Of a stretch of DNA of 41,468 nucleotides, positions 12,288 through 23,236 are shown piece after piece (the stretch's first letter is position 1; each line of letters begins with the position of its first letter). The position numbers and the translations under genes are program-made. The notes beneath the pieces are model-generated. The model did not search any database, was not told the origin of the DNA, and saw nothing but the letters and a program-made list of their open reading frames with translations. Origin of the DNA: a virus; IMG/VR virus record IMGVR_UViG_3300045988_045315; one strand, 5' to 3'.

Positions 12288-12583
12288 AGAACAACAAAGA
12301 GTGATTGCAATGTTGGATAAGCTGAAAGAGCCAACGGCGGTTTGACAAGCAAAAAACGCCCCAGAATTTCAACTGAGGCTTTGCCGCATATAGACGGAAA
12401 GTAAAACGAGCTAAAATTAGCCCCATACAACGATGATAATTCAAAAGACGATAAAAGTATCAAGGAACAAACAAAACTCGCTCAAAACGAAAATTACCCG
12501 AAAATAACGAGCAAGGGGAAAGCGATGTTTTTGAGAGAGAAGCAAAGTAAAATGGCTTTACCATTATAAAAGGTTTGAAAAAA

Positions 12584-13267
12584 ATGGAAGCGAGTAAAAG
12601 ACAAAGGGGTAGACGCCCGAAAATGTGCAAACGTACAAAAGACCAAAGGGAGTTTGATTTGGCTTTTTGTTCAAATCTGTTTTTGCGTGGGTACACGTAT
12701 AGGGAGATTTCGGAAAGGCTGAATGAGGAAAATGCACGGCGTGGCGTGGGGTATACCATCACAAAACAAATGGTATACTGGGATATGCAACAGTTGCTAA
12801 TTGAGTGGAAACGTGAACGAATGGAAAATATAGACGATTACGTGACGCAAGAATTGCGAAAGTTGGATAAAATGGAGGTCGAATTGTGGGAGGCATGGGA
12901 ACGTTCAAAGACCGGGAAATTGAGAGAAAAAAGCAGACGAAATGCAAAGCCCCGGAAAGTGCTGGAAGATGGCGACAATCCGGAATATTATGGTTATGAG
13001 GAAGCCACCACGGAAACGTCCGCCGGAAATCCCCGATTTTTGGATTTGCTTTTAAACGTGCAGCAACGCCGGGCAAAGATGTTGGGATTTGATGCGCCGA
13101 TAAAAGTGGATATACCGGGGTTGAGTGAAAATATGAATAGCGATGCGCCGAAATATGATGTCGCCGCAATACCGGAAGATTTATTGTTTGCAGTCGCAGA
13201 CAAATTGCAATCGGCGGAGTACAAACGAGCGTTAGCAGAAAAGGGGGTAACGGATGGCGACACGTAA
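12584..13267 (+). CDS. terS: Terminase small subunit (putative)
   Basis: Sits immediately upstream of terL. It has a basic N-terminus, an HTH-like segment GYTYREISERLNEE, a coiled middle and ...QQRRAKMLGFDAP. First ATG; the track start at 12575 is TTG. Confidence 0.65.
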   Translation: MEASKRQRGRRPKMCKRTKDQREFDLAFCSNLFLRGYTYREISERLNEENARRGVGYTITKQMVYWDMQQLLIEWKRERMENIDDYVTQELRKLDKMEVELWEAWERSKTGKLREKSRRNAKPRKVLEDGDNPEYYGYEEATTETSAGNPRFLDLLLNVQQRRAKMLGFDAPIKVDIPGLSENMNSDAPKYDVAAIPEDLLFAVADKLQSAEYKRALAEKGVTDGDT

Positions 13268-13475
13268 GAAAACGGCAAGTCCGGCAAAGGAACTGGAGTA
13301 TAAGAATGAAATATGCGACAATTGCGAGTTGGCGACATGGGTAACGCATTTGCACCAGCATATAGATCACTGCGGGAAACCTATTTGTTTGACGTGTCCG
13401 AACAAAACGTATTTAATTGTACGAGGTTGTAAGGCGTGCCGATATTTTGTAAAGAGAAAGGAGAAAAAGCAATGA
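13254..13475 (+). CDS. Small Cys-rich (zinc-ribbon-like) protein
   Basis: CDNCE...HCGKPICLTC...GCKACRYF. It overlaps both the terS stop and the terL start. Confidence 0.55.
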   Translation: MATRKKTASPAKELEYKNEICDNCELATWVTHLHQHIDHCGKPICLTCPNKTYLIVRGCKACRYFVKRKEKKQ

Positions 13476-15028
13476 ATAATGAGGAATTGTTGAGAATGTA
13501 CGCCGCCATTAAAAGCAATCCGGGCGAAATAGTAAAAGAGGCGGCACGACATAGGTTGATAAACTTTGCTCGGTATATGCAACCGGATTTGACTTTGGAG
13601 CCATTCCACGTCGTCTACTATACGCTATTGGATATGTTCGCACACGGGAAAATACGAAAAATGATTGTGCAAATGCCGCCCCAGCATGGGAAAAGCGAGG
13701 GTTCAAGCCGAAAAACACCGTCTTTCATGCTGGGTTTGGACCCGGATAAAAAAATATGTATCGGTTCGTATGCGGCTACCATAGCGAGAGATTTTAACCG
13801 TGATGTTCAAAGGATAATTGATACCCCACGATACCAGGAATTGTTTCCGGAAACGTTTTTGAATGGTTCAAACGTTGTGACAATGGCTAACACTTATTTG
13901 CGAAATTCTGATGTTATAGAAATGGTTGGGCATAAGGGGTCATTGCGTGTCGTCGGTCGTGGCGGTTCTCTGACGTCAAAAACTGTTGATGTTTCCATAC
14001 TGGACGATGTTTATAAAGATTATGCCGAGGGGAACAGCCCGATTGTACGTAATGCGGCGTGGAGGTGGTACACGACCGTTGTACGCACTCGATTGCATAA
14101 TGATTCGCAGGAACTGATTGTTTTCACACGTTGGCATGACGATGATTTGATAGGACGTATCGAGAAAAGCGGAGAAACGGTTATTGATATAAGAAATTGG
14201 GACGATGTGAAGAATATCCCGGCGGGTGCATGGGTCCGGATAAATTTTGAGGGATTGAAAACCGGGGAACCAACAGAGATTGACCCGAGGGAACCAGGGG
14301 CGGCGTTGTGGGATAAACGACACAGCCGGGCGAAATTGGAGGGACAAAGAGCATTAGACCCGGTGCAGTTCCAATGCTTGTATCAAGGGAACCCCGGAAG
14401 CGCAGAGGGTAGATTGTACCGAAACCCATTCCGTACATACGTTGACAAATCAGAATGGGGAATGTATGTGCGTAGTGGAAATTATACCGATGTGGCGGAT
14501 GAGGGCGACGACTATACGTTTTCGGCGTGTTATGACGTGTACAAATCCGGTAATGAAGCATGGAACGAGCAAAAGAAAAGGTTTGAGCCAATACTGTATG
14601 CTTTAGTTACTGATATGGTTTACACGCAAGAAAACACAGATGTAACAGCCGTTACCGTCCCAGCAATGATTAACCGGAGTGGTACACAAAAAGCATGGAT
14701 TGAAAGCAATAATGGAGGTTCGGGATTTGAAAAGTTGATAAGGAAAAAGATAAAAGCGATTTCAGAACCATTTTATCAAGGTGCCAACAAGGAAAGCAGA
14801 ATTGTGACAAATTCGGCAAGCGTCAACGCCCAAATAATAATGCCATTAGACTGGGAAGAGCGTTTCCCAAAGATATACGAACACGTAACCGGATTTTTGC
14901 GAGATTTCTCGGCAAATGAACATGACGATATAGAGGACGGTTTGACCGGGATATATGAAAAGGAGATTGCAGACGGAAATATACTTCCATACGCACACGC
15001 AATCCGAGGTGTAAAAAGGCGGAACTAA
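13472..15028 (+). CDS. terL: Terminase large subunit
   Basis: Walker A-like MPPQHGKSE, Walker B-like VSILDDVYKD, and a C-terminal nuclease-sized domain. Size and position are typical. Confidence 0.85.
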   Translation: MNNEELLRMYAAIKSNPGEIVKEAARHRLINFARYMQPDLTLEPFHVVYYTLLDMFAHGKIRKMIVQMPPQHGKSEGSSRKTPSFMLGLDPDKKICIGSYAATIARDFNRDVQRIIDTPRYQELFPETFLNGSNVVTMANTYLRNSDVIEMVGHKGSLRVVGRGGSLTSKTVDVSILDDVYKDYAEGNSPIVRNAAWRWYTTVVRTRLHNDSQELIVFTRWHDDDLIGRIEKSGETVIDIRNWDDVKNIPAGAWVRINFEGLKTGEPTEIDPREPGAALWDKRHSRAKLEGQRALDPVQFQCLYQGNPGSAEGRLYRNPFRTYVDKSEWGMYVRSGNYTDVADEGDDYTFSACYDVYKSGNEAWNEQKKRFEPILYALVTDMVYTQENTDVTAVTVPAMINRSGTQKAWIESNNGGSGFEKLIRKKIKAISEPFYQGANKESRIVTNSASVNAQIIMPLDWEERFPKIYEHVTGFLRDFSANEHDDIEDGLTGIYEKEIADGNILPYAHAIRGVKRRN

Positions 15029-15078
15029 CAAAATATTTTATGATTGGAGGTGTTTTTGCTAAAAAGTGTTAATATTGT

Positions 15079-15124
15079 GCGTTTTGTTGCATATCTGACA
15101 CAAGGGCATTATCTTTGTGTCAGA
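15079..15124 (+). promoter_or_regulatory. Promoter with overlapping inverted-repeat operator (TCTGACACAA-N11-TTGTGTCAGA)
   Basis: The -7 box TATCTTTG lies at 15110-15117, with gTTG at 15086-15089 (20-nt spacer). A perfect 10-bp inverted repeat (15094-15103 / 15115-15124) straddles the -7 box. Confidence 0.55.
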
Positions 15125-15179
15125 AATAAAAACCAATAATTAACTAAACCGACCCGAGCAGGCGTTACTGTCAGAAAGA

Positions 15180-15386
15180 TTGGATTTGGTGGCTATAGAC
15201 GAGGCGAACGCAATAAACGAGGCGAAAGAACACTTTTATCTACTGCGAGAAGATGACGACTACAAAAACGCTGAAATAAAGAAAATGTACGCTATCGTAG
15301 ATTACCCGGAACCGGGAGTGACACATACACGAGGTTACTTACTTCTTGATAAAGATTGGGATGTAGAATTATTTTCGCTTTATTAA
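15180..15386 (+). CDS. Small acidic protein (68 aa, TTG start); anti-defence candidate
   Basis: The frame is open from 15144 with no in-frame ATG before codon 36. Very Asp/Glu-rich. No family recognised. Confidence 0.5.
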   Translation: MDLVAIDEANAINEAKEHFYLLREDDDYKNAEIKKMYAIVDYPEPGVTHTRGYLLLDKDWDVELFSLY

Positions 15387-15410
15387 TCTGACATAAAATT
15401 AATTGACAAA

Positions 15411-15656
15411 ATGGAATTGAATGAAACATTAAGAAACGAGCAAAACGAGACGGCACAAGTACGTATGCGCTTGTGCAAGGCGTTGAAGCGGGTAAGGACA
15501 GGTAAAGAAATGTCGCAAATGGTACTTAGCGAGAAAAGCGGCGTTGCACGGTCGAACATCGCAAGAATCGAGGGCGGAAACCTTAACACAGGGTTAGACA
15601 CAATCATTAAACTTTGTGATGCGCTTGGTTGCTCGCTTGAAGTAGTCCCCAAATAG
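15411..15656 (+). CDS. XRE-family helix-turn-helix regulator (81 aa)
   Basis: LKRVRTGKEMSQMVLSEKSGVARSNIARIEGGNLNTGLDTIIKLCDALGCSLEV is a canonical XRE HTH. Confidence 0.85.
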   Translation: MELNETLRNEQNETAQVRMRLCKALKRVRTGKEMSQMVLSEKSGVARSNIARIEGGNLNTGLDTIIKLCDALGCSLEVVPK

Positions 15657-15748
15657 CAAGACCACACCACACCGAAAGGGACTTTGGAAGAACTCACGAC
15701 CTTACTGCAATAAGGTTAGAGCGAAAAATTTATCAATTACTTTCACGG

Positions 15749-15775
15749 GGTTGCATTCTCTGCAACCTTTTTTTT
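15749..15775 (+). terminator. Intrinsic terminator
   Basis: GGTTGCA-ttctc-TGCAACC followed by T8. Confidence 0.75.
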
Positions 15776-15798
15776 GTTAAACATATCGTTGATTTTGT

Positions 15799-15838
15799 GC
15801 GTTTTAGTTTGATATGCAAAAACTTTGCATTAAATTTG
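15799..15838 (+). promoter_or_regulatory. Late (virion-module) promoter candidate
   Basis: TTTG at 15808-15811, a 19-nt spacer, then TAAATTTG at 15831-15838. It shares TTGTGCGTTTT and GCATTAnnTTTG with the promoter at 15079-15117. Confidence 0.5.
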
Positions 15839-15909
15839 CAATGAGTAATGGGGCAAAGGGTTAGCCCGTAAGGAAATAAAAAGAGTTTTAATATTAAAAA
15901 TTTAAGATT

Positions 15910-16560
15910 ATGGCTATTTGTAAATGCCCGGCAGCAGCAGCGTTGCCAAACATTCCCAATTTTACATGTGCAGAGAGTTTCGGACAGATTCAAAAAGTAG
16001 CGTTTCAACGTCTGTATAAAAGTGCGGGCGGGAAAAACTCATTTACAGCAGATGCTGGAATAGGCAAATTGGCGTCATGGTCGCCGTTATTGGCAGCAGA
16101 GGACGGCACGAAAATTGTCATTTCGCCGTATATCCAAGCACCGACAGCAGAAGCGGGCGCACCTCGTACGTTCGGCGGAGGAAATGAAACGTTGGGCGGT
16201 ATAGAAGAAATTATTGGTCGTGAACCAACACCGTTTACCGGAGTTATACGAAAAATGCCGCAATCATTAATCAAGGCATTAAAGGAATTGCAGTGCGAAA
16301 GCGATTCGCAGAATTTGGGCGTTTATCTGTTTGACGAAAACGGTTCAATTGGAGCATTGCAAGACCCGACAACGGCAACAACGTACTATCCGATTCCGAT
16401 TCGTTCTTTGTTCGTTGGGGATAAGACTTTGGGCGGACTGGAGGCACCGGATAGCAACGCCGTACAATGGTCGTTCTTACCCAACTGGTCGGACGATTTG
16501 GTTGTTTTGACACCGGAGGATTTCAACCCGTTAACAGACTTGAAAAATGCAGCGGGATAA
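15910..16560 (+). CDS. Virion-module protein of unknown role (216 aa)
   Basis: First gene after the late promoter. Gly/Ala/Pro-rich, beta-type sequence. No family recognised. Confidence 0.75.
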   Translation: MAICKCPAAAALPNIPNFTCAESFGQIQKVAFQRLYKSAGGKNSFTADAGIGKLASWSPLLAAEDGTKIVISPYIQAPTAEAGAPRTFGGGNETLGGIEEIIGREPTPFTGVIRKMPQSLIKALKELQCESDSQNLGVYLFDENGSIGALQDPTTATTYYPIPIRSLFVGDKTLGGLEAPDSNAVQWSFLPNWSDDLVVLTPEDFNPLTDLKNAAG

Positions 16561-16756
16561 GACAACGAAAGTGTTGTTGGAGTGCAAAGCATTAAACGCA
16601 ACACGTGAATTTGATGTATCACACGCCGAAAGGTTGTTGAGGATGCAGAAAAACGGCGGATGGCAGTTGCCGGAAAACTCAAAATTTGAATTTAGCAAAG
16701 AAAATGGGCTTAGATACAAGAGAAATAAGAAAGCAGATAACGGATCCACGGAATAG
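16547..16756 (+). CDS. Hypothetical protein (69 aa)
   Basis: ORF bridging 15910..16560 and the portal gene. Confidence 0.5.
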   Translation: MQRDKTTKVLLECKALNATREFDVSHAERLLRMQKNGGWQLPENSKFEFSKENGLRYKRNKKADNGSTE

Positions 16757-16757
16757 A

Positions 16758-18422
16758 ATGGCGATAAGTAGGGCGATTTACCACCAAAACCGCATACGAT
16801 TCCATGCGGAAAAGGCGTTGACGCCGTACATTACGCAACCCGTGACCGATTTTTTGGCTTATGTCTCAAACCTTATCCCCGCAGACAAATTCAAAGTGTT
16901 CAAAACATTGTTCCGTTACCCCGTCAAAACAAACGAGGTAACGGGCGTTTGTTTTGATAAGTTGAGCCGCATTTTTGACGGTCGTAACCCAGCGTTCAAT
17001 TATCAGTTCATGACCAGCGAGCAAAGGGACGATTGGGAGTATTACAGACAGGACGTATTGAAAGAACCCGAAATATGGAGTACCAAGGGATGGGAGTATT
17101 TTAAAACCGAAATCAACAGCATATTAATTGTTGATTTGCCAAAAGAGCAATCCCCCGGCGATAGTTACCCGGAACCATACTTTTATTGGTTGCCAATTGA
17201 ACACGTCATTTCATACGAGGCTGACAAGACAACGGGCGTCATGCGTTGGATAATATTTCGGCAGGACGACAAGCGTATTGCAGTAATAGATGATGAGCGA
17301 TACCGGGTATTTACCGAGGAAAAAGGCAATATTGGCGAATTGCTGATTGATAGCCCGCATGATTTGGGATATTGCCCAGCTCGGTTTTTTTGGGACGAAC
17401 CATTAAGTTTGAGAGAACCGGACGTCAAGGCGTCACCTTTGACCGACGAGTTGGAAAGTTTAGACTGGTTTCTTTTTTATCATTTGTCAAAGAAAAATTT
17501 GGATATGTACGGGGCTTACCCGATTTATTCCGGATATGAACAAAGTTGCGATTTCACGAACGGCGAAAACGGCGATTATTGCGACGGCGGATTTTTGAAA
17601 GACAAACAAGGCTTTTATAAATTAGACCAAGCGGGTTTATTGATGCGTTGCCCGAAATGTGGCGACAAGCGTATTGTTGGCGTTGGTTCGTTCGTGGAAA
17701 TACCTATTCCGGACGGCGACAAACAGCCGGATTTACGAAACCCGGTGCAAGTGCTGACCGTTGACCGCAATAGTTTGGATTATAATGTCGATGAGGAGGA
17801 ACGATTGCGTACAAACATAATTACGGCGGTCGTCGGTACCAATGAAGAGATAACGACACGGGACGCATTGAATGAACAGCAAATTAAAGCCAATTTTGAA
17901 AGCCAAAGCACTGTGTTAAACCGAGTGAAAAAAGGCTTTGAGGCGGCGCAGAAGTTTGTTGATGAAACGGTTTGCCGTTTGCGTTATGGCGATATGTTCG
18001 TGTCTGCAAAAATCAATTATGGCACCGAGTTTTATTTATCCGATGCAACCCAGTTGCGAGAACGTTATAAGCTGGCTAAAGAGAGCGGAGCAAGCGAGGG
18101 GGAATTGGATGCGCTACACAATCAGATTATCGAAACGGAGTACAGACACGACCCGATACAGAAACAACGGATGCTCGTGTTGGCAGAGCTGGAGCCGTAC
18201 CGACATTTGACACGTTCAGAGGTAATGGAGTTGTACGAGAAACAGCTAATTACGGAGGAAGAATTGCGCATTAAGTTGAATTTCGCTAATTTTGTGCGGA
18301 GGTTTGAGCGAGAAAATACAAACATTTTGGAATTTGGAAACCAAATACCTTTTTCCAAGAAAATTGAAGTAATAACAAATAAATTTTATGATTATGCGAG
18401 TGAAAACAGAAAAGGAGGGTAG
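16758..18422 (+). CDS. Portal protein (putative)
   Basis: About 555 aa, with the position expected for a portal. The ATG at 16758 lies 1 nt after the upstream stop. Alternative starts are 16704 (ATG) and 16686 (TTG). No motif-level proof. Confidence 0.55.
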   Translation: MAISRAIYHQNRIRFHAEKALTPYITQPVTDFLAYVSNLIPADKFKVFKTLFRYPVKTNEVTGVCFDKLSRIFDGRNPAFNYQFMTSEQRDDWEYYRQDVLKEPEIWSTKGWEYFKTEINSILIVDLPKEQSPGDSYPEPYFYWLPIEHVISYEADKTTGVMRWIIFRQDDKRIAVIDDERYRVFTEEKGNIGELLIDSPHDLGYCPARFFWDEPLSLREPDVKASPLTDELESLDWFLFYHLSKKNLDMYGAYPIYSGYEQSCDFTNGENGDYCDGGFLKDKQGFYKLDQAGLLMRCPKCGDKRIVGVGSFVEIPIPDGDKQPDLRNPVQVLTVDRNSLDYNVDEEERLRTNIITAVVGTNEEITTRDALNEQQIKANFESQSTVLNRVKKGFEAAQKFVDETVCRLRYGDMFVSAKINYGTEFYLSDATQLRERYKLAKESGASEGELDALHNQIIETEYRHDPIQKQRMLVLAELEPYRHLTRSEVMELYEKQLITEEELRIKLNFANFVRRFERENTNILEFGNQIPFSKKIEVITNKFYDYASENRKGG

Positions 18423-22777: not shown

Positions 22778-23236
22778 ATGAAAAAGATAACCGATTTACG
22801 GAAAAGGGTTGCGGATTTCAACGAGGCTTTGACGTCCGGGCGGCTGATGCAGGATATTATATGGGATAATGACGCTTATATTATTGATATGAACGCCGAG
22901 GAACAATTGTTTGAGAGAGGCATTAACCGTTTGGGCGTGGAAATTATGGATTATGCGCCATATAGCCCAGTCACAATTGAAATTAAGGAGGCAAAGGGAC
23001 AGCCGACAAACCGGGTCACTTTAAGGGATGAGGGCGATTTTGAAAGTAGCTTTTTTCTGGAAGTTGGCGACAAGCAATTTGAAATAAAGGCGTCCGATTT
23101 CAAGACAGAGGATTTAATAAAGAAATACGGGCGTCAGATATTAGGATTGACGGACGAAAATATTGCCATACTGATATGGCAATACATATATCCGGATTTA
23201 ATGGACGAAGCAAAAAAACAAATTTATGGCAAATAA
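22778..23236 (+). CDS. Hypothetical virion-module protein (152 aa)
   Basis: ORF only. Confidence 0.7.
   Translation: MKKITDLRKRVADFNEALTSGRLMQDIIWDNDAYIIDMNAEEQLFERGINRLGVEIMDYAPYSPVTIEIKEAKGQPTNRVTLRDEGDFESSFFLEVGDKQFEIKASDFKTEDLIKKYGRQILGLTDENIAILIWQYIYPDLMDEAKKQIYGK

Follow-up and report, generated by a model that had tools for sequence, protein, structure and literature searches.

A decayed, probably acr-aca-like accessory operon at the packaging/head border of a gut Bacteroidales phage

The IMG/VR record IMGVR_UViG_3300045988_045315, a stretch of 41,468 nt that is called the window below and to whose full length all coordinates refer, is a siphovirus genome of ~41.5 kb with its genes all on one strand. 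It groups with phages of Bacteroides, Parabacteroides and Alistipes, including B40-8, B124-14, PDS1 and BKO1-3, and the window phage is a gut Bacteroidales phage. Between the large terminase gene terL and a head gene matching phrog_8193 lies a short cassette that consists of a promoter, a 68-amino-acid (aa) acidic open reading frame (ORF) with a TTG start, an XRE-family helix-turn-helix (HTH) gene and a terminator. A preliminary description of this stretch had proposed that the cassette is a candidate anti-defence locus of the acr-aca type, in which a small inhibitor gene is controlled by an HTH autorepressor. Comparison with related loci and contigs (L numbers) and with clusters of related HTH and cargo proteins (P numbers) revealed that the window holds a truncated copy of a cassette that is intact elsewhere.

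In BKO1-3, PDS1 and the Elizabethkingia phage TCUEAP2, terL and the phrog_8193 gene adjoin with a gap of only ~105-125 nt, which indicates that the ~780 bp present here are an insertion. The unit at ~15029-15810 is a self-contained accessory insertion in a variable slot at the packaging/head border, and it interrupts the packaging-to-morphogenesis block, as had been noted previously. Conservation of the 68-aa ORF as a core gene, which would have spoken against the preliminary description, is not observed: the cassette is absent from BKO1-3, PDS1 and TCUEAP2, and the ORF is thus no syntenic core gene of the B40-8/PDS1-like siphoviruses. An HTH gene close to terL in TCUEAP2 was considered as a cassette homologue and rejected because it is unrelated. 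An 18-nt direct repeat (16/18 identical) stands on both sides of the cassette, as GTTAATATTGTGCGTTTT at 15068-15085 and GTTGATTTTGTGCGTTTT at 15788-15805. Just two exact copies of TTGTGCGTTTT occur in the window, both within this repeat (the second at 15795-15805), and each copy of the repeat lies ~35 nt 5' of a TAnnTTTG -7 box. Recombination at the repeat may be a route to gain or loss of the cassette. A 12-mer of the same repeat is found in three tandem copies in the promoter of L014.

Analysis of the 68-aa ORF showed that its homologues form five clusters only, each of them longer (83-104 aa, with the N-terminal extension M[VI]ECDKQEDIYYLIYALLSE). With a longer relative as query, ten clusters spanning 174-222 aa were obtained, and the complete protein, A-B, is a single chain of ~188 aa (full form 184-189 aa). 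Since the homologues are all longer and the window keeps just residues 119-188, the 68-aa ORF is, judged by alignment, the C-terminal 37% of a ~188-aa acidic gene rather than an independent gene. The preliminary description was right that the ORF is open, acidic (isoelectric point (pI) 4.35) and of no recognisable family, with no match in Pfam, PHROG, PADLOC or NCBIfam; its view of the ORF as a separate small gene does not stand. In blastn alignments, positions 48-176 of L016 correspond to window 15052-15167 and positions 819-1331 to window 15162-15680, and because these two L016 segments abut in the window, ~0.64 kb is missing there. The window follows the conserved leader up to ...CCGACCCGAGCAGG and then jumps to CGTTACTGTCAG within the cargo gene, with the fusion at 15162/15163. 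This deletion, which looks recent and private to this genome because the junction 25-mer is absent from IMG/VR and from JGI metagenomes, took away the first cargo gene or genes, codons 1-118 of A-B and, from a conserved leader hairpin, the 3' arm. The remnant has no ATG, an in-frame TAA stands at 15141-15143, and the TTG at 15180 is an ordinary Leu codon inherited from the full-length gene. Also missing are M104, C107 and E111, which are conserved, and the first predicted helix of the domain. The 68-aa product is probably untranslated or non-functional.

Some related loci split A-B by an in-frame TGA or a frameshift. The TGA falls at a Cys codon of the full-length relatives (L015, L016 and P0051-P0060) and is found at 490-505 in L010, at ~455-470 in L009 and at ~5950 in L005; the half downstream of it stays well conserved, and A-B may here be a split gene, or there may be readthrough or re-initiation. 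The leader hairpin, CGACC-N6-GGTCG in the 5' untranslated region (UTR), is seen at 5386-5402 in L004, 5658-5674 in L005, 2926-2942 in L012 and in others, with half of it left in the window at 15150-15154. It is present where the first cargo gene is K or A and absent where T comes first. As an operator for the HTH protein this hairpin was rejected, because T-first cassettes that lack it have the same HTH. The hairpin is reminiscent of the structured motifs in 5' UTRs to which Aca1 and Aca2 bind (PMC13551039).

Table 1. Features of the cassette and its flanking genes in the window.
Feature	Position	Strand	Basis
Large terminase gene terL, left flank, outside the cassette	13436-15028	+	phrog_38, E = 1.8e-74; Terminase_6N
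Upstream part of the cassette promoter module, AAAAGTGTTAATATTGTGCGTTTTGTTG, with -33-like TTG at 15087-15089	15062-15089	+	Module common to all related cassettes
Perfect 10-bp inverted repeat TCTGACACAA (15094-15103)-N11-TTGTGTCAGA (15115-15124), candidate operator	15094-15124	.	Read from sequence
-7 box TATCTTTG, Bacteroides TAnnTTTG type	15110-15117	+	Read from sequence
Remaining 5' leader; of hairpin CGACC-N6-GGTCG only the 5' arm CGACC (15150-15154) survives	15125-15162	+	Comparison with L004, L005, L009, L012-L018 and others
Deletion junction, where leader ...GCAGG runs into CGTTACTGTCAG of the cargo gene, with CGTTA as shared microhomology	15161-15167	+	blastn against L016
3' remnant of the A-B cargo gene, residues 119-188 of ~188; contains the TTG ORF 15180-15386	15162-15386	+	tblastn, E = 2.6e-30
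Spacer before the HTH gene; fourth heptamer (15387-15393) and conserved joint TAAAATTAATTGACAAA	15387-15410	+	Alignment
81-aa XRE-family HTH gene, terminal regulator, putative autorepressor	15411-15656	+	HTH_3, E = 4.8e-9
Terminator-like hairpin (15747-15769) with T-run, closes the cassette	15747-15775	+	Hairpin and T-run in sequence
Right border: second repeat copy GTTGATTTTGTGCGTTTT and head-gene promoter with -7 box TAAATTTG at 15832-15839	15788-15839	+	Direct repeat
phrog_8193 'major head protein'/MP-type gene, right flank, outside the cassette	15910-16560	+	E = 3.8e-73

Between promoter and HTH gene, the cassettes carry one to four cargo genes, drawn from K (70-85 aa), A-B (~188 aa), T (84 aa; in T-long it forms the N-terminal portion of a 240-248-aa protein), a 145-aa protein, MATIT (free at 68 aa in L017, or the N-terminal domain of a 161-aa HTH fusion) and a 118-aa protein. 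All of these families are strongly acidic, with a pI of 4.05-4.6 and 19-28% Asp plus Glu. BLASTP found no similarity among the compared cargo sequences, a set that left out the free 68-aa MATIT; by eye, the C-terminal halves of the latter and of the 118-aa protein match. In IMG/VR, K and T-long are confined to contigs that bear this cassette and to one contig-end fragment. A profile of A-B gave seven hits among 1.84 billion representative proteins, all of the same family, and its B domain had no match in IMG/VR; A-B, T-long and K had none in PDB sequence searches.

The cargo is exchanged between close relatives. Four loci (L012, L013, L014 and L018), which share 94-97% identity with the window on either flank, carry K and T in place of the remnant, the homology to the window stopping at 15174 and resuming at 15393. 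In L010, which is nearest to the window in the remnant, K and A-B are present. Variability of the slot among related phages, which had been suggested as a check, is thus observed both as presence or absence of the cassette and as different cargo in near-identical strains. At least three contexts harbour the cassette: the slot between terL and the head gene, the end of a prophage, where it adjoins bacterial Crp-like and TonB-receptor genes, and other phage contigs, where it stands beside a divergent HTH_3 gene. One promoter and one HTH are combined with at least six cargo families in mobile elements. Loss of cargo with retention of the HTH has occurred repeatedly, in the window, in L019, where a 47-aa T stub is left, and in the fusions P0043 (K'-HTH) and P0048/P0049 (T'-HTH). 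The HTH N-termini of P0043, P0048 and P0049 are the first 17-25 residues of K or T genes, which makes these proteins in-frame deletion fusions. In many other relatives (L004 and L020-L033) an acidic ~90-aa domain is fused N-terminally to the same HTH to give a 161-aa protein.

The promoter module, AAAAGTGTTAAYRTTGTGCRTTTT ... GTTGCATAT ... TATCTTTGYRTCAGAAAT, is shared by all 27 loci that have upstream DNA, and in an independent DNA-pattern scan of IMG/VR each full-module match was followed by cargo and a terminal HTH. In the window, a TTG stands 20 nt 5' of the -7 box. This box is of the Bacteroides consensus type TAnnTTTG, as applied in PMC4747536 and PMC12632263, and is kept in 25 of 27 distinct related promoters, with L012 and L014 differing by one base. 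The perfect 10-bp inverted repeat straddles it, as the preliminary description had stated; 10/10 arm positions pair in the window and 6-10/10 in 13 other promoters of the same type. Its axis at 15109 is the best conserved dyad axis among 19 window-type promoters, with CAAAG-N7-CTTTG plus T.TG/CA.A as the conserved core. The dyad spans the spacer and the -7/+1 region and overlaps both the -7 box and the likely start site. This part of a core promoter is a classic location for a repressor, and the interest of the repeat comes from its position and not from its mere existence. In L021, another perfect arm pair, TCTGATACAA and TTGTATCAGA, is found. The 31-nt perfect dyad was not found in JGI metagenome contigs and, like the deletion junction, looks private to this genome.

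The arms also contain two of four copies of the heptamer TGTCAGA/TCTGACA that had been pointed out within 300 bp, at 15094, 15118, 15169 and 15387. These positions and the enrichment are borne out (10 copies in the window against 1.94 expected; 0/100 shuffles reached 10). Two of the four form part of the promoter dyad, and the other two are incidental: that at 15169 is coding sequence for LLSE, conserved in every homologue, and that at 15387 recurs in L010, the nearest relative, alone, with TCTGAGC or TCTGAAC in other loci that have this gene. A TGTCAGA regulon was rejected, as the remaining six copies in the window share no common flanking sequence.

The XRE assignment of the 81-aa protein is upheld by the HTH_3 match, and the predicted intrinsic terminator by the hairpin followed by a T-run; equivalent hairpins with altered stems are present in L009 and L010. 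By its matches, the regulator is a generic small XRE protein. Homologues of the HTH fall into 45 clusters, as against 5-12 for the cargo gene, and residues 43-54 (SGxARSNIARIE; S43 to E54), the helix-turn-helix core, are invariant in 29 clusters except for one V45I. The HTH is under selection apart from the cargo, as indicated by its more numerous clusters, its invariant recognition helix and its retention at independent cargo losses. Among GTDB representative genomes, only distant relatives at 32-50% identity were found. L050 carries a second HTH type, 41% identical, with a similar recognition helix.

From these data, we consider the window copy to be a decayed member of a mobile, acr-aca-like family of accessory operons of Bacteroidales phages and prophages, with a probability of roughly 0.6. 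An intact cassette would comprise a host-type -33/-7 promoter, one to four interchangeable acidic genes, a terminal XRE HTH and an intrinsic terminator. A mechanism is proposed in which host RNA polymerase fires this promoter on phage entry, so that the acidic cargo is made early. A dimer of the HTH protein, which is probably the autorepressor of the cassette promoter, would then bind in the promoter module and shut it down, with the perfect dyad over the -7 box as the best candidate site, and the terminator would insulate the head genes downstream. Autorepression somewhere in the module we regard as likely; that this exact 10-bp dyad is the binding site is more doubtful, at a little short of even odds. 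In the window, where the ~0.64-kb deletion joined the leader to about codon 119 of the cargo gene, probably only the promoter-HTH-terminator loop works. Retention of the HTH without cargo would be expected if an unrepressed strong promoter is harmful, as was reported for Aca1 (Stanley et al. 2019, as cited in PMC8008677).

The HTH repressors known as Aca proteins act by binding to inverted repeats in acr promoters, and one aca can be joined with different acr genes, as described in PMC9765179, PMC9410906 and PMC13551039. The cassette resembles the operons of Aca1 (Pseudomonas phage JBD30) and Aca2 (Pectobacterium phage ZF40) in being a short same-strand phage operon whose strong promoter has a dyad at its core, in which small, acidic, relative-less genes with fast turnover precede a conserved terminal HTH. 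The same regulator is likewise joined with different cargo and is kept when the cargo is lost. The cassette differs in its Bacteroidales host with -33/-7 promoters, in the loss of cargo from the window copy, in an HTH that is not placed among Aca1-Aca14, and in that none of the cargo is homologous to a known Acr. The window has the layout that AcaFinder looks for (PMC9765179), with remnant and HTH both on the + strand, 24 nt apart and 68 and 81 aa long, and most relatives comply, exceptions being T-long (240-248 aa) and HTH forms of 161 and 189-192 aa. From Bacteroidota, the same source lists three predicted Aca families, which it links to AcrIIA7 and AcrIIA9. The Acr-HTH fusions AcrIF24 and AcrIIA13-15 also provide a parallel for the acidic ~90-aa domain fused to the HTH in relatives (for AcrIF24, PMC9638941), whereas the window HTH is of the plain 81-aa form. 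The layout of the cassette matches that of acr-aca loci, which makes membership probable rather than established. AcrIIA1 is a further Acr-HTH fusion of this kind. The autonomous operon layout put forward in the preliminary description holds at the level of the family; its view of the 68-aa ORF as the effector is not supported. Phage morons and accessory hot spots are similar as well, being autonomous promoter-gene-terminator units that are present or absent among relatives and swap their content; the cassette differs from these by its own conserved regulator and by a promoter module that is shared across unrelated backbones.

Several observations weigh against this interpretation. No cargo homologous to a known or predicted Acr, which is the central requirement of AcaFinder, was found in Pfam, PHROGs, PADLOC, NCBIfam or PDB sequences, nor was any other anti-defence or unrelated family matched there. 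AlphaFold2 models were unusable, with pLDDT 58.9 for the B domain (6 sequences) and 51.8 for full A-B (17 sequences), and Foldseek against the PDB gave nothing at E <= 0.001, so that homology searches and structure prediction, both recommended in the preliminary description to place the 68-aa ORF, led to no family (models with pLDDT 52-59). For the HTH, the best solved relatives are HigA of S. pneumoniae (6af3, E = 5.8e-8), C.BclI, C.AhdI and HipB (2b5a and 1y7y are among the entries of these relatives), and no Aca chain is among the 43 PDB sequences that match it at E <= 1. As to the operator, four distinct perfect 10-bp repeats with a spacer of <=20 nt occur in the window (6 hits; one repeat has 12-bp arms), where a Markov model predicts 1.7 hits. 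Covariation of the arms as proof of an operator was rejected, since cognate and non-cognate pairs score alike (7.5/10 vs 7.48/10; permutation p = 0.53, 14 distinct promoters). Near strains vary at two or three left-arm positions despite an identical recognition helix, and in eight related promoters one nucleotide is inserted and another dyad is present, with its centre 6 nt upstream, although the recognition helix is the same; this other dyad shows no correlation with HTH type. The right arm, TTTGYRTCAGAAAT, is also found in about a dozen unrelated AT-rich promoter-like contexts and is, from this distribution, largely a generic Bacteroidota -7/+1 promoter core.

Other explanations of the locus were weighed against these data. 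The one closest to the preliminary description, that the 68-aa ORF itself encodes a functional anti-CRISPR or anti-restriction protein that starts at the TTG and is controlled by the HTH, would be consistent with an acidic frame that is still open, with its divergence from L010 (three synonymous changes and one non-synonymous change) and with the intact promoter, HTH gene and terminator around it. We consider it improbable, as the ORF is a C-terminal fragment that lacks an ATG, three conserved residues and the first predicted helix of its domain, has only longer homologues, and follows a junction seen nowhere else in the databases searched. The same private junction, together with the deleted cargo and the destroyed leader hairpin, could also mean that the whole unit is a dead relic in this phage, in which nothing is expressed or selected. 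The HTH ORF, however, is intact and 93-96% identical to its closest relatives with an unchanged recognition helix, and the -33/-7 elements and the terminator are preserved as well, which makes a dead unit about as improbable as a functional 68-aa inhibitor.

An unlikely, though better supported, alternative is that the HTH is the real payload, which represses phage development, a competing phage or host genes, and that the acidic genes are unrelated morons on its promoter. In conservation and spread the HTH far exceeds any cargo, it is kept at each cargo loss, and its PHROG matches are phage repressors and regulators. Absence of the cassette from BKO1-3, PDS1 and TCUEAP2 indicates that it is not needed for development, though, and no extended copy of the promoter dyad exists elsewhere in the window; retention of the HTH would be equally expected of an Aca-type repressor on a strong promoter. 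The closest solved relatives raise the question of a type II toxin-antitoxin pair of the HigBA or HipBA type, with an upstream toxin and a downstream HTH antitoxin. HigA and HipB antitoxins, and likewise the controller (C) proteins of restriction-modification (R-M) systems, are small dimeric XRE autoregulators that act on promoter dyads, the order of small ORF and HTH is that of HigBA, and HTH_37, dnstrm_HI1420 and couple_hipB are matched weakly. The HTH does not reach the curated score of an antitoxin family in any NCBIfam model (score/cut-off: couple_hipB 38.0/71.65, HipB 26.1/79, dnstrm_HI1420 20.7/53.7, HigA 17.2/47.7), and the upstream genes, which are acidic and bear no relation to one another, are interchangeable and in many cases disrupted, with no match to RelE, HigB, ParE or HipA. 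A toxin-antitoxin pair is thus very improbable. No restriction or modification genes were found beside the HTH, whose flanks are terL and the head gene, and its PADLOC Control_protein matches reflect HTH similarity only; in this absence of a toxin partner and of R-M genes the cassette differs from both groups of regulators.

For the acr-aca-like family, architecture, acidity, strain-level turnover and fusion to the regulator suggest that intact cargo proteins may act as anti-defence inhibitors. More tentatively still than for the operator, we hypothesize that the family is an undescribed anti-defence hot spot of gut Bacteroidales phages, with a new Aca-type XRE repressor, a common promoter module and at least six new families of acidic inhibitors that near-identical strains swap to match host defences. 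If this is true, the inhibitors could be nucleic-acid mimics, some of them fused to the repressor, and the window copy would be a natural cargo-less variant that could serve as an isogenic control. CRISPR spacers heavily target the phages of gut Bacteroidota, most Bacteroidetes phages being targeted, yet predictors find Acr candidates in no more than a small share of these phages (Benler et al. 2021, PMC8008677). The conserved promoter and HTH can be used as bait, and already yield at least six acidic cargo families that vary among strains of one phage species. Should the cargo be inhibitors, they would rank among the first for pairs of a Bacteroidales phage and its host and might account for host range at the level of strains, a point that bears on the ecology of gut phages and on phage therapy. 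As the window copy has lost its cargo, the proteins of interest are those of the intact relatives and not the window ORF.

A number of minor observations were made at this locus and its relatives. The exact 19-mer TTATCTTTGYRTCAGAAAT recurs in unrelated AT-rich promoter-like IMG/VR loci (L051, L060-L062, L064, L067, L069, L073, L074 and L077) and is apparently a strong -7/+1 core that is widespread in Bacteroidota and their phages. In two IMG/VR 3300037400 contigs, L058 and L071, the generic promoter core precedes two small ORFs, of 90 and 86 aa, and a ribbon-helix-helix-like ORF of 58 aa, which is another acr-aca-like arrangement in an unrelated phage. The true start of terL is probably the ATG at 13472, because its relatives are 518 aa long. 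The 230-aa gene directly 5' of terL (12575-13267) matches phrog_645, labelled 'RNase E', and the homologue in PDS1 carries the annotation RNA polymerase sigma factor; the two annotations are in conflict, and judged by its position the gene may be the small terminase. The portal gene begins at 16686 and contains the one with 12-bp arms among three further perfect inverted repeats with arms of >=10 bp (16924-16957, 1456-1482 and 23161-23184). No known RNA family from Rfam was matched in 14900-16000. A hairpin, GGGGCAAAGGG(N)AGCCCC, lies at 15841-15870 in the 5' UTR of the phrog_8193 gene and is conserved in BKO1-3, PDS1 and TCUEAP2; its positions in relatives are ~2590-2612 in L001, ~2590-2610 in L003 and ~3035-3060 in L002.

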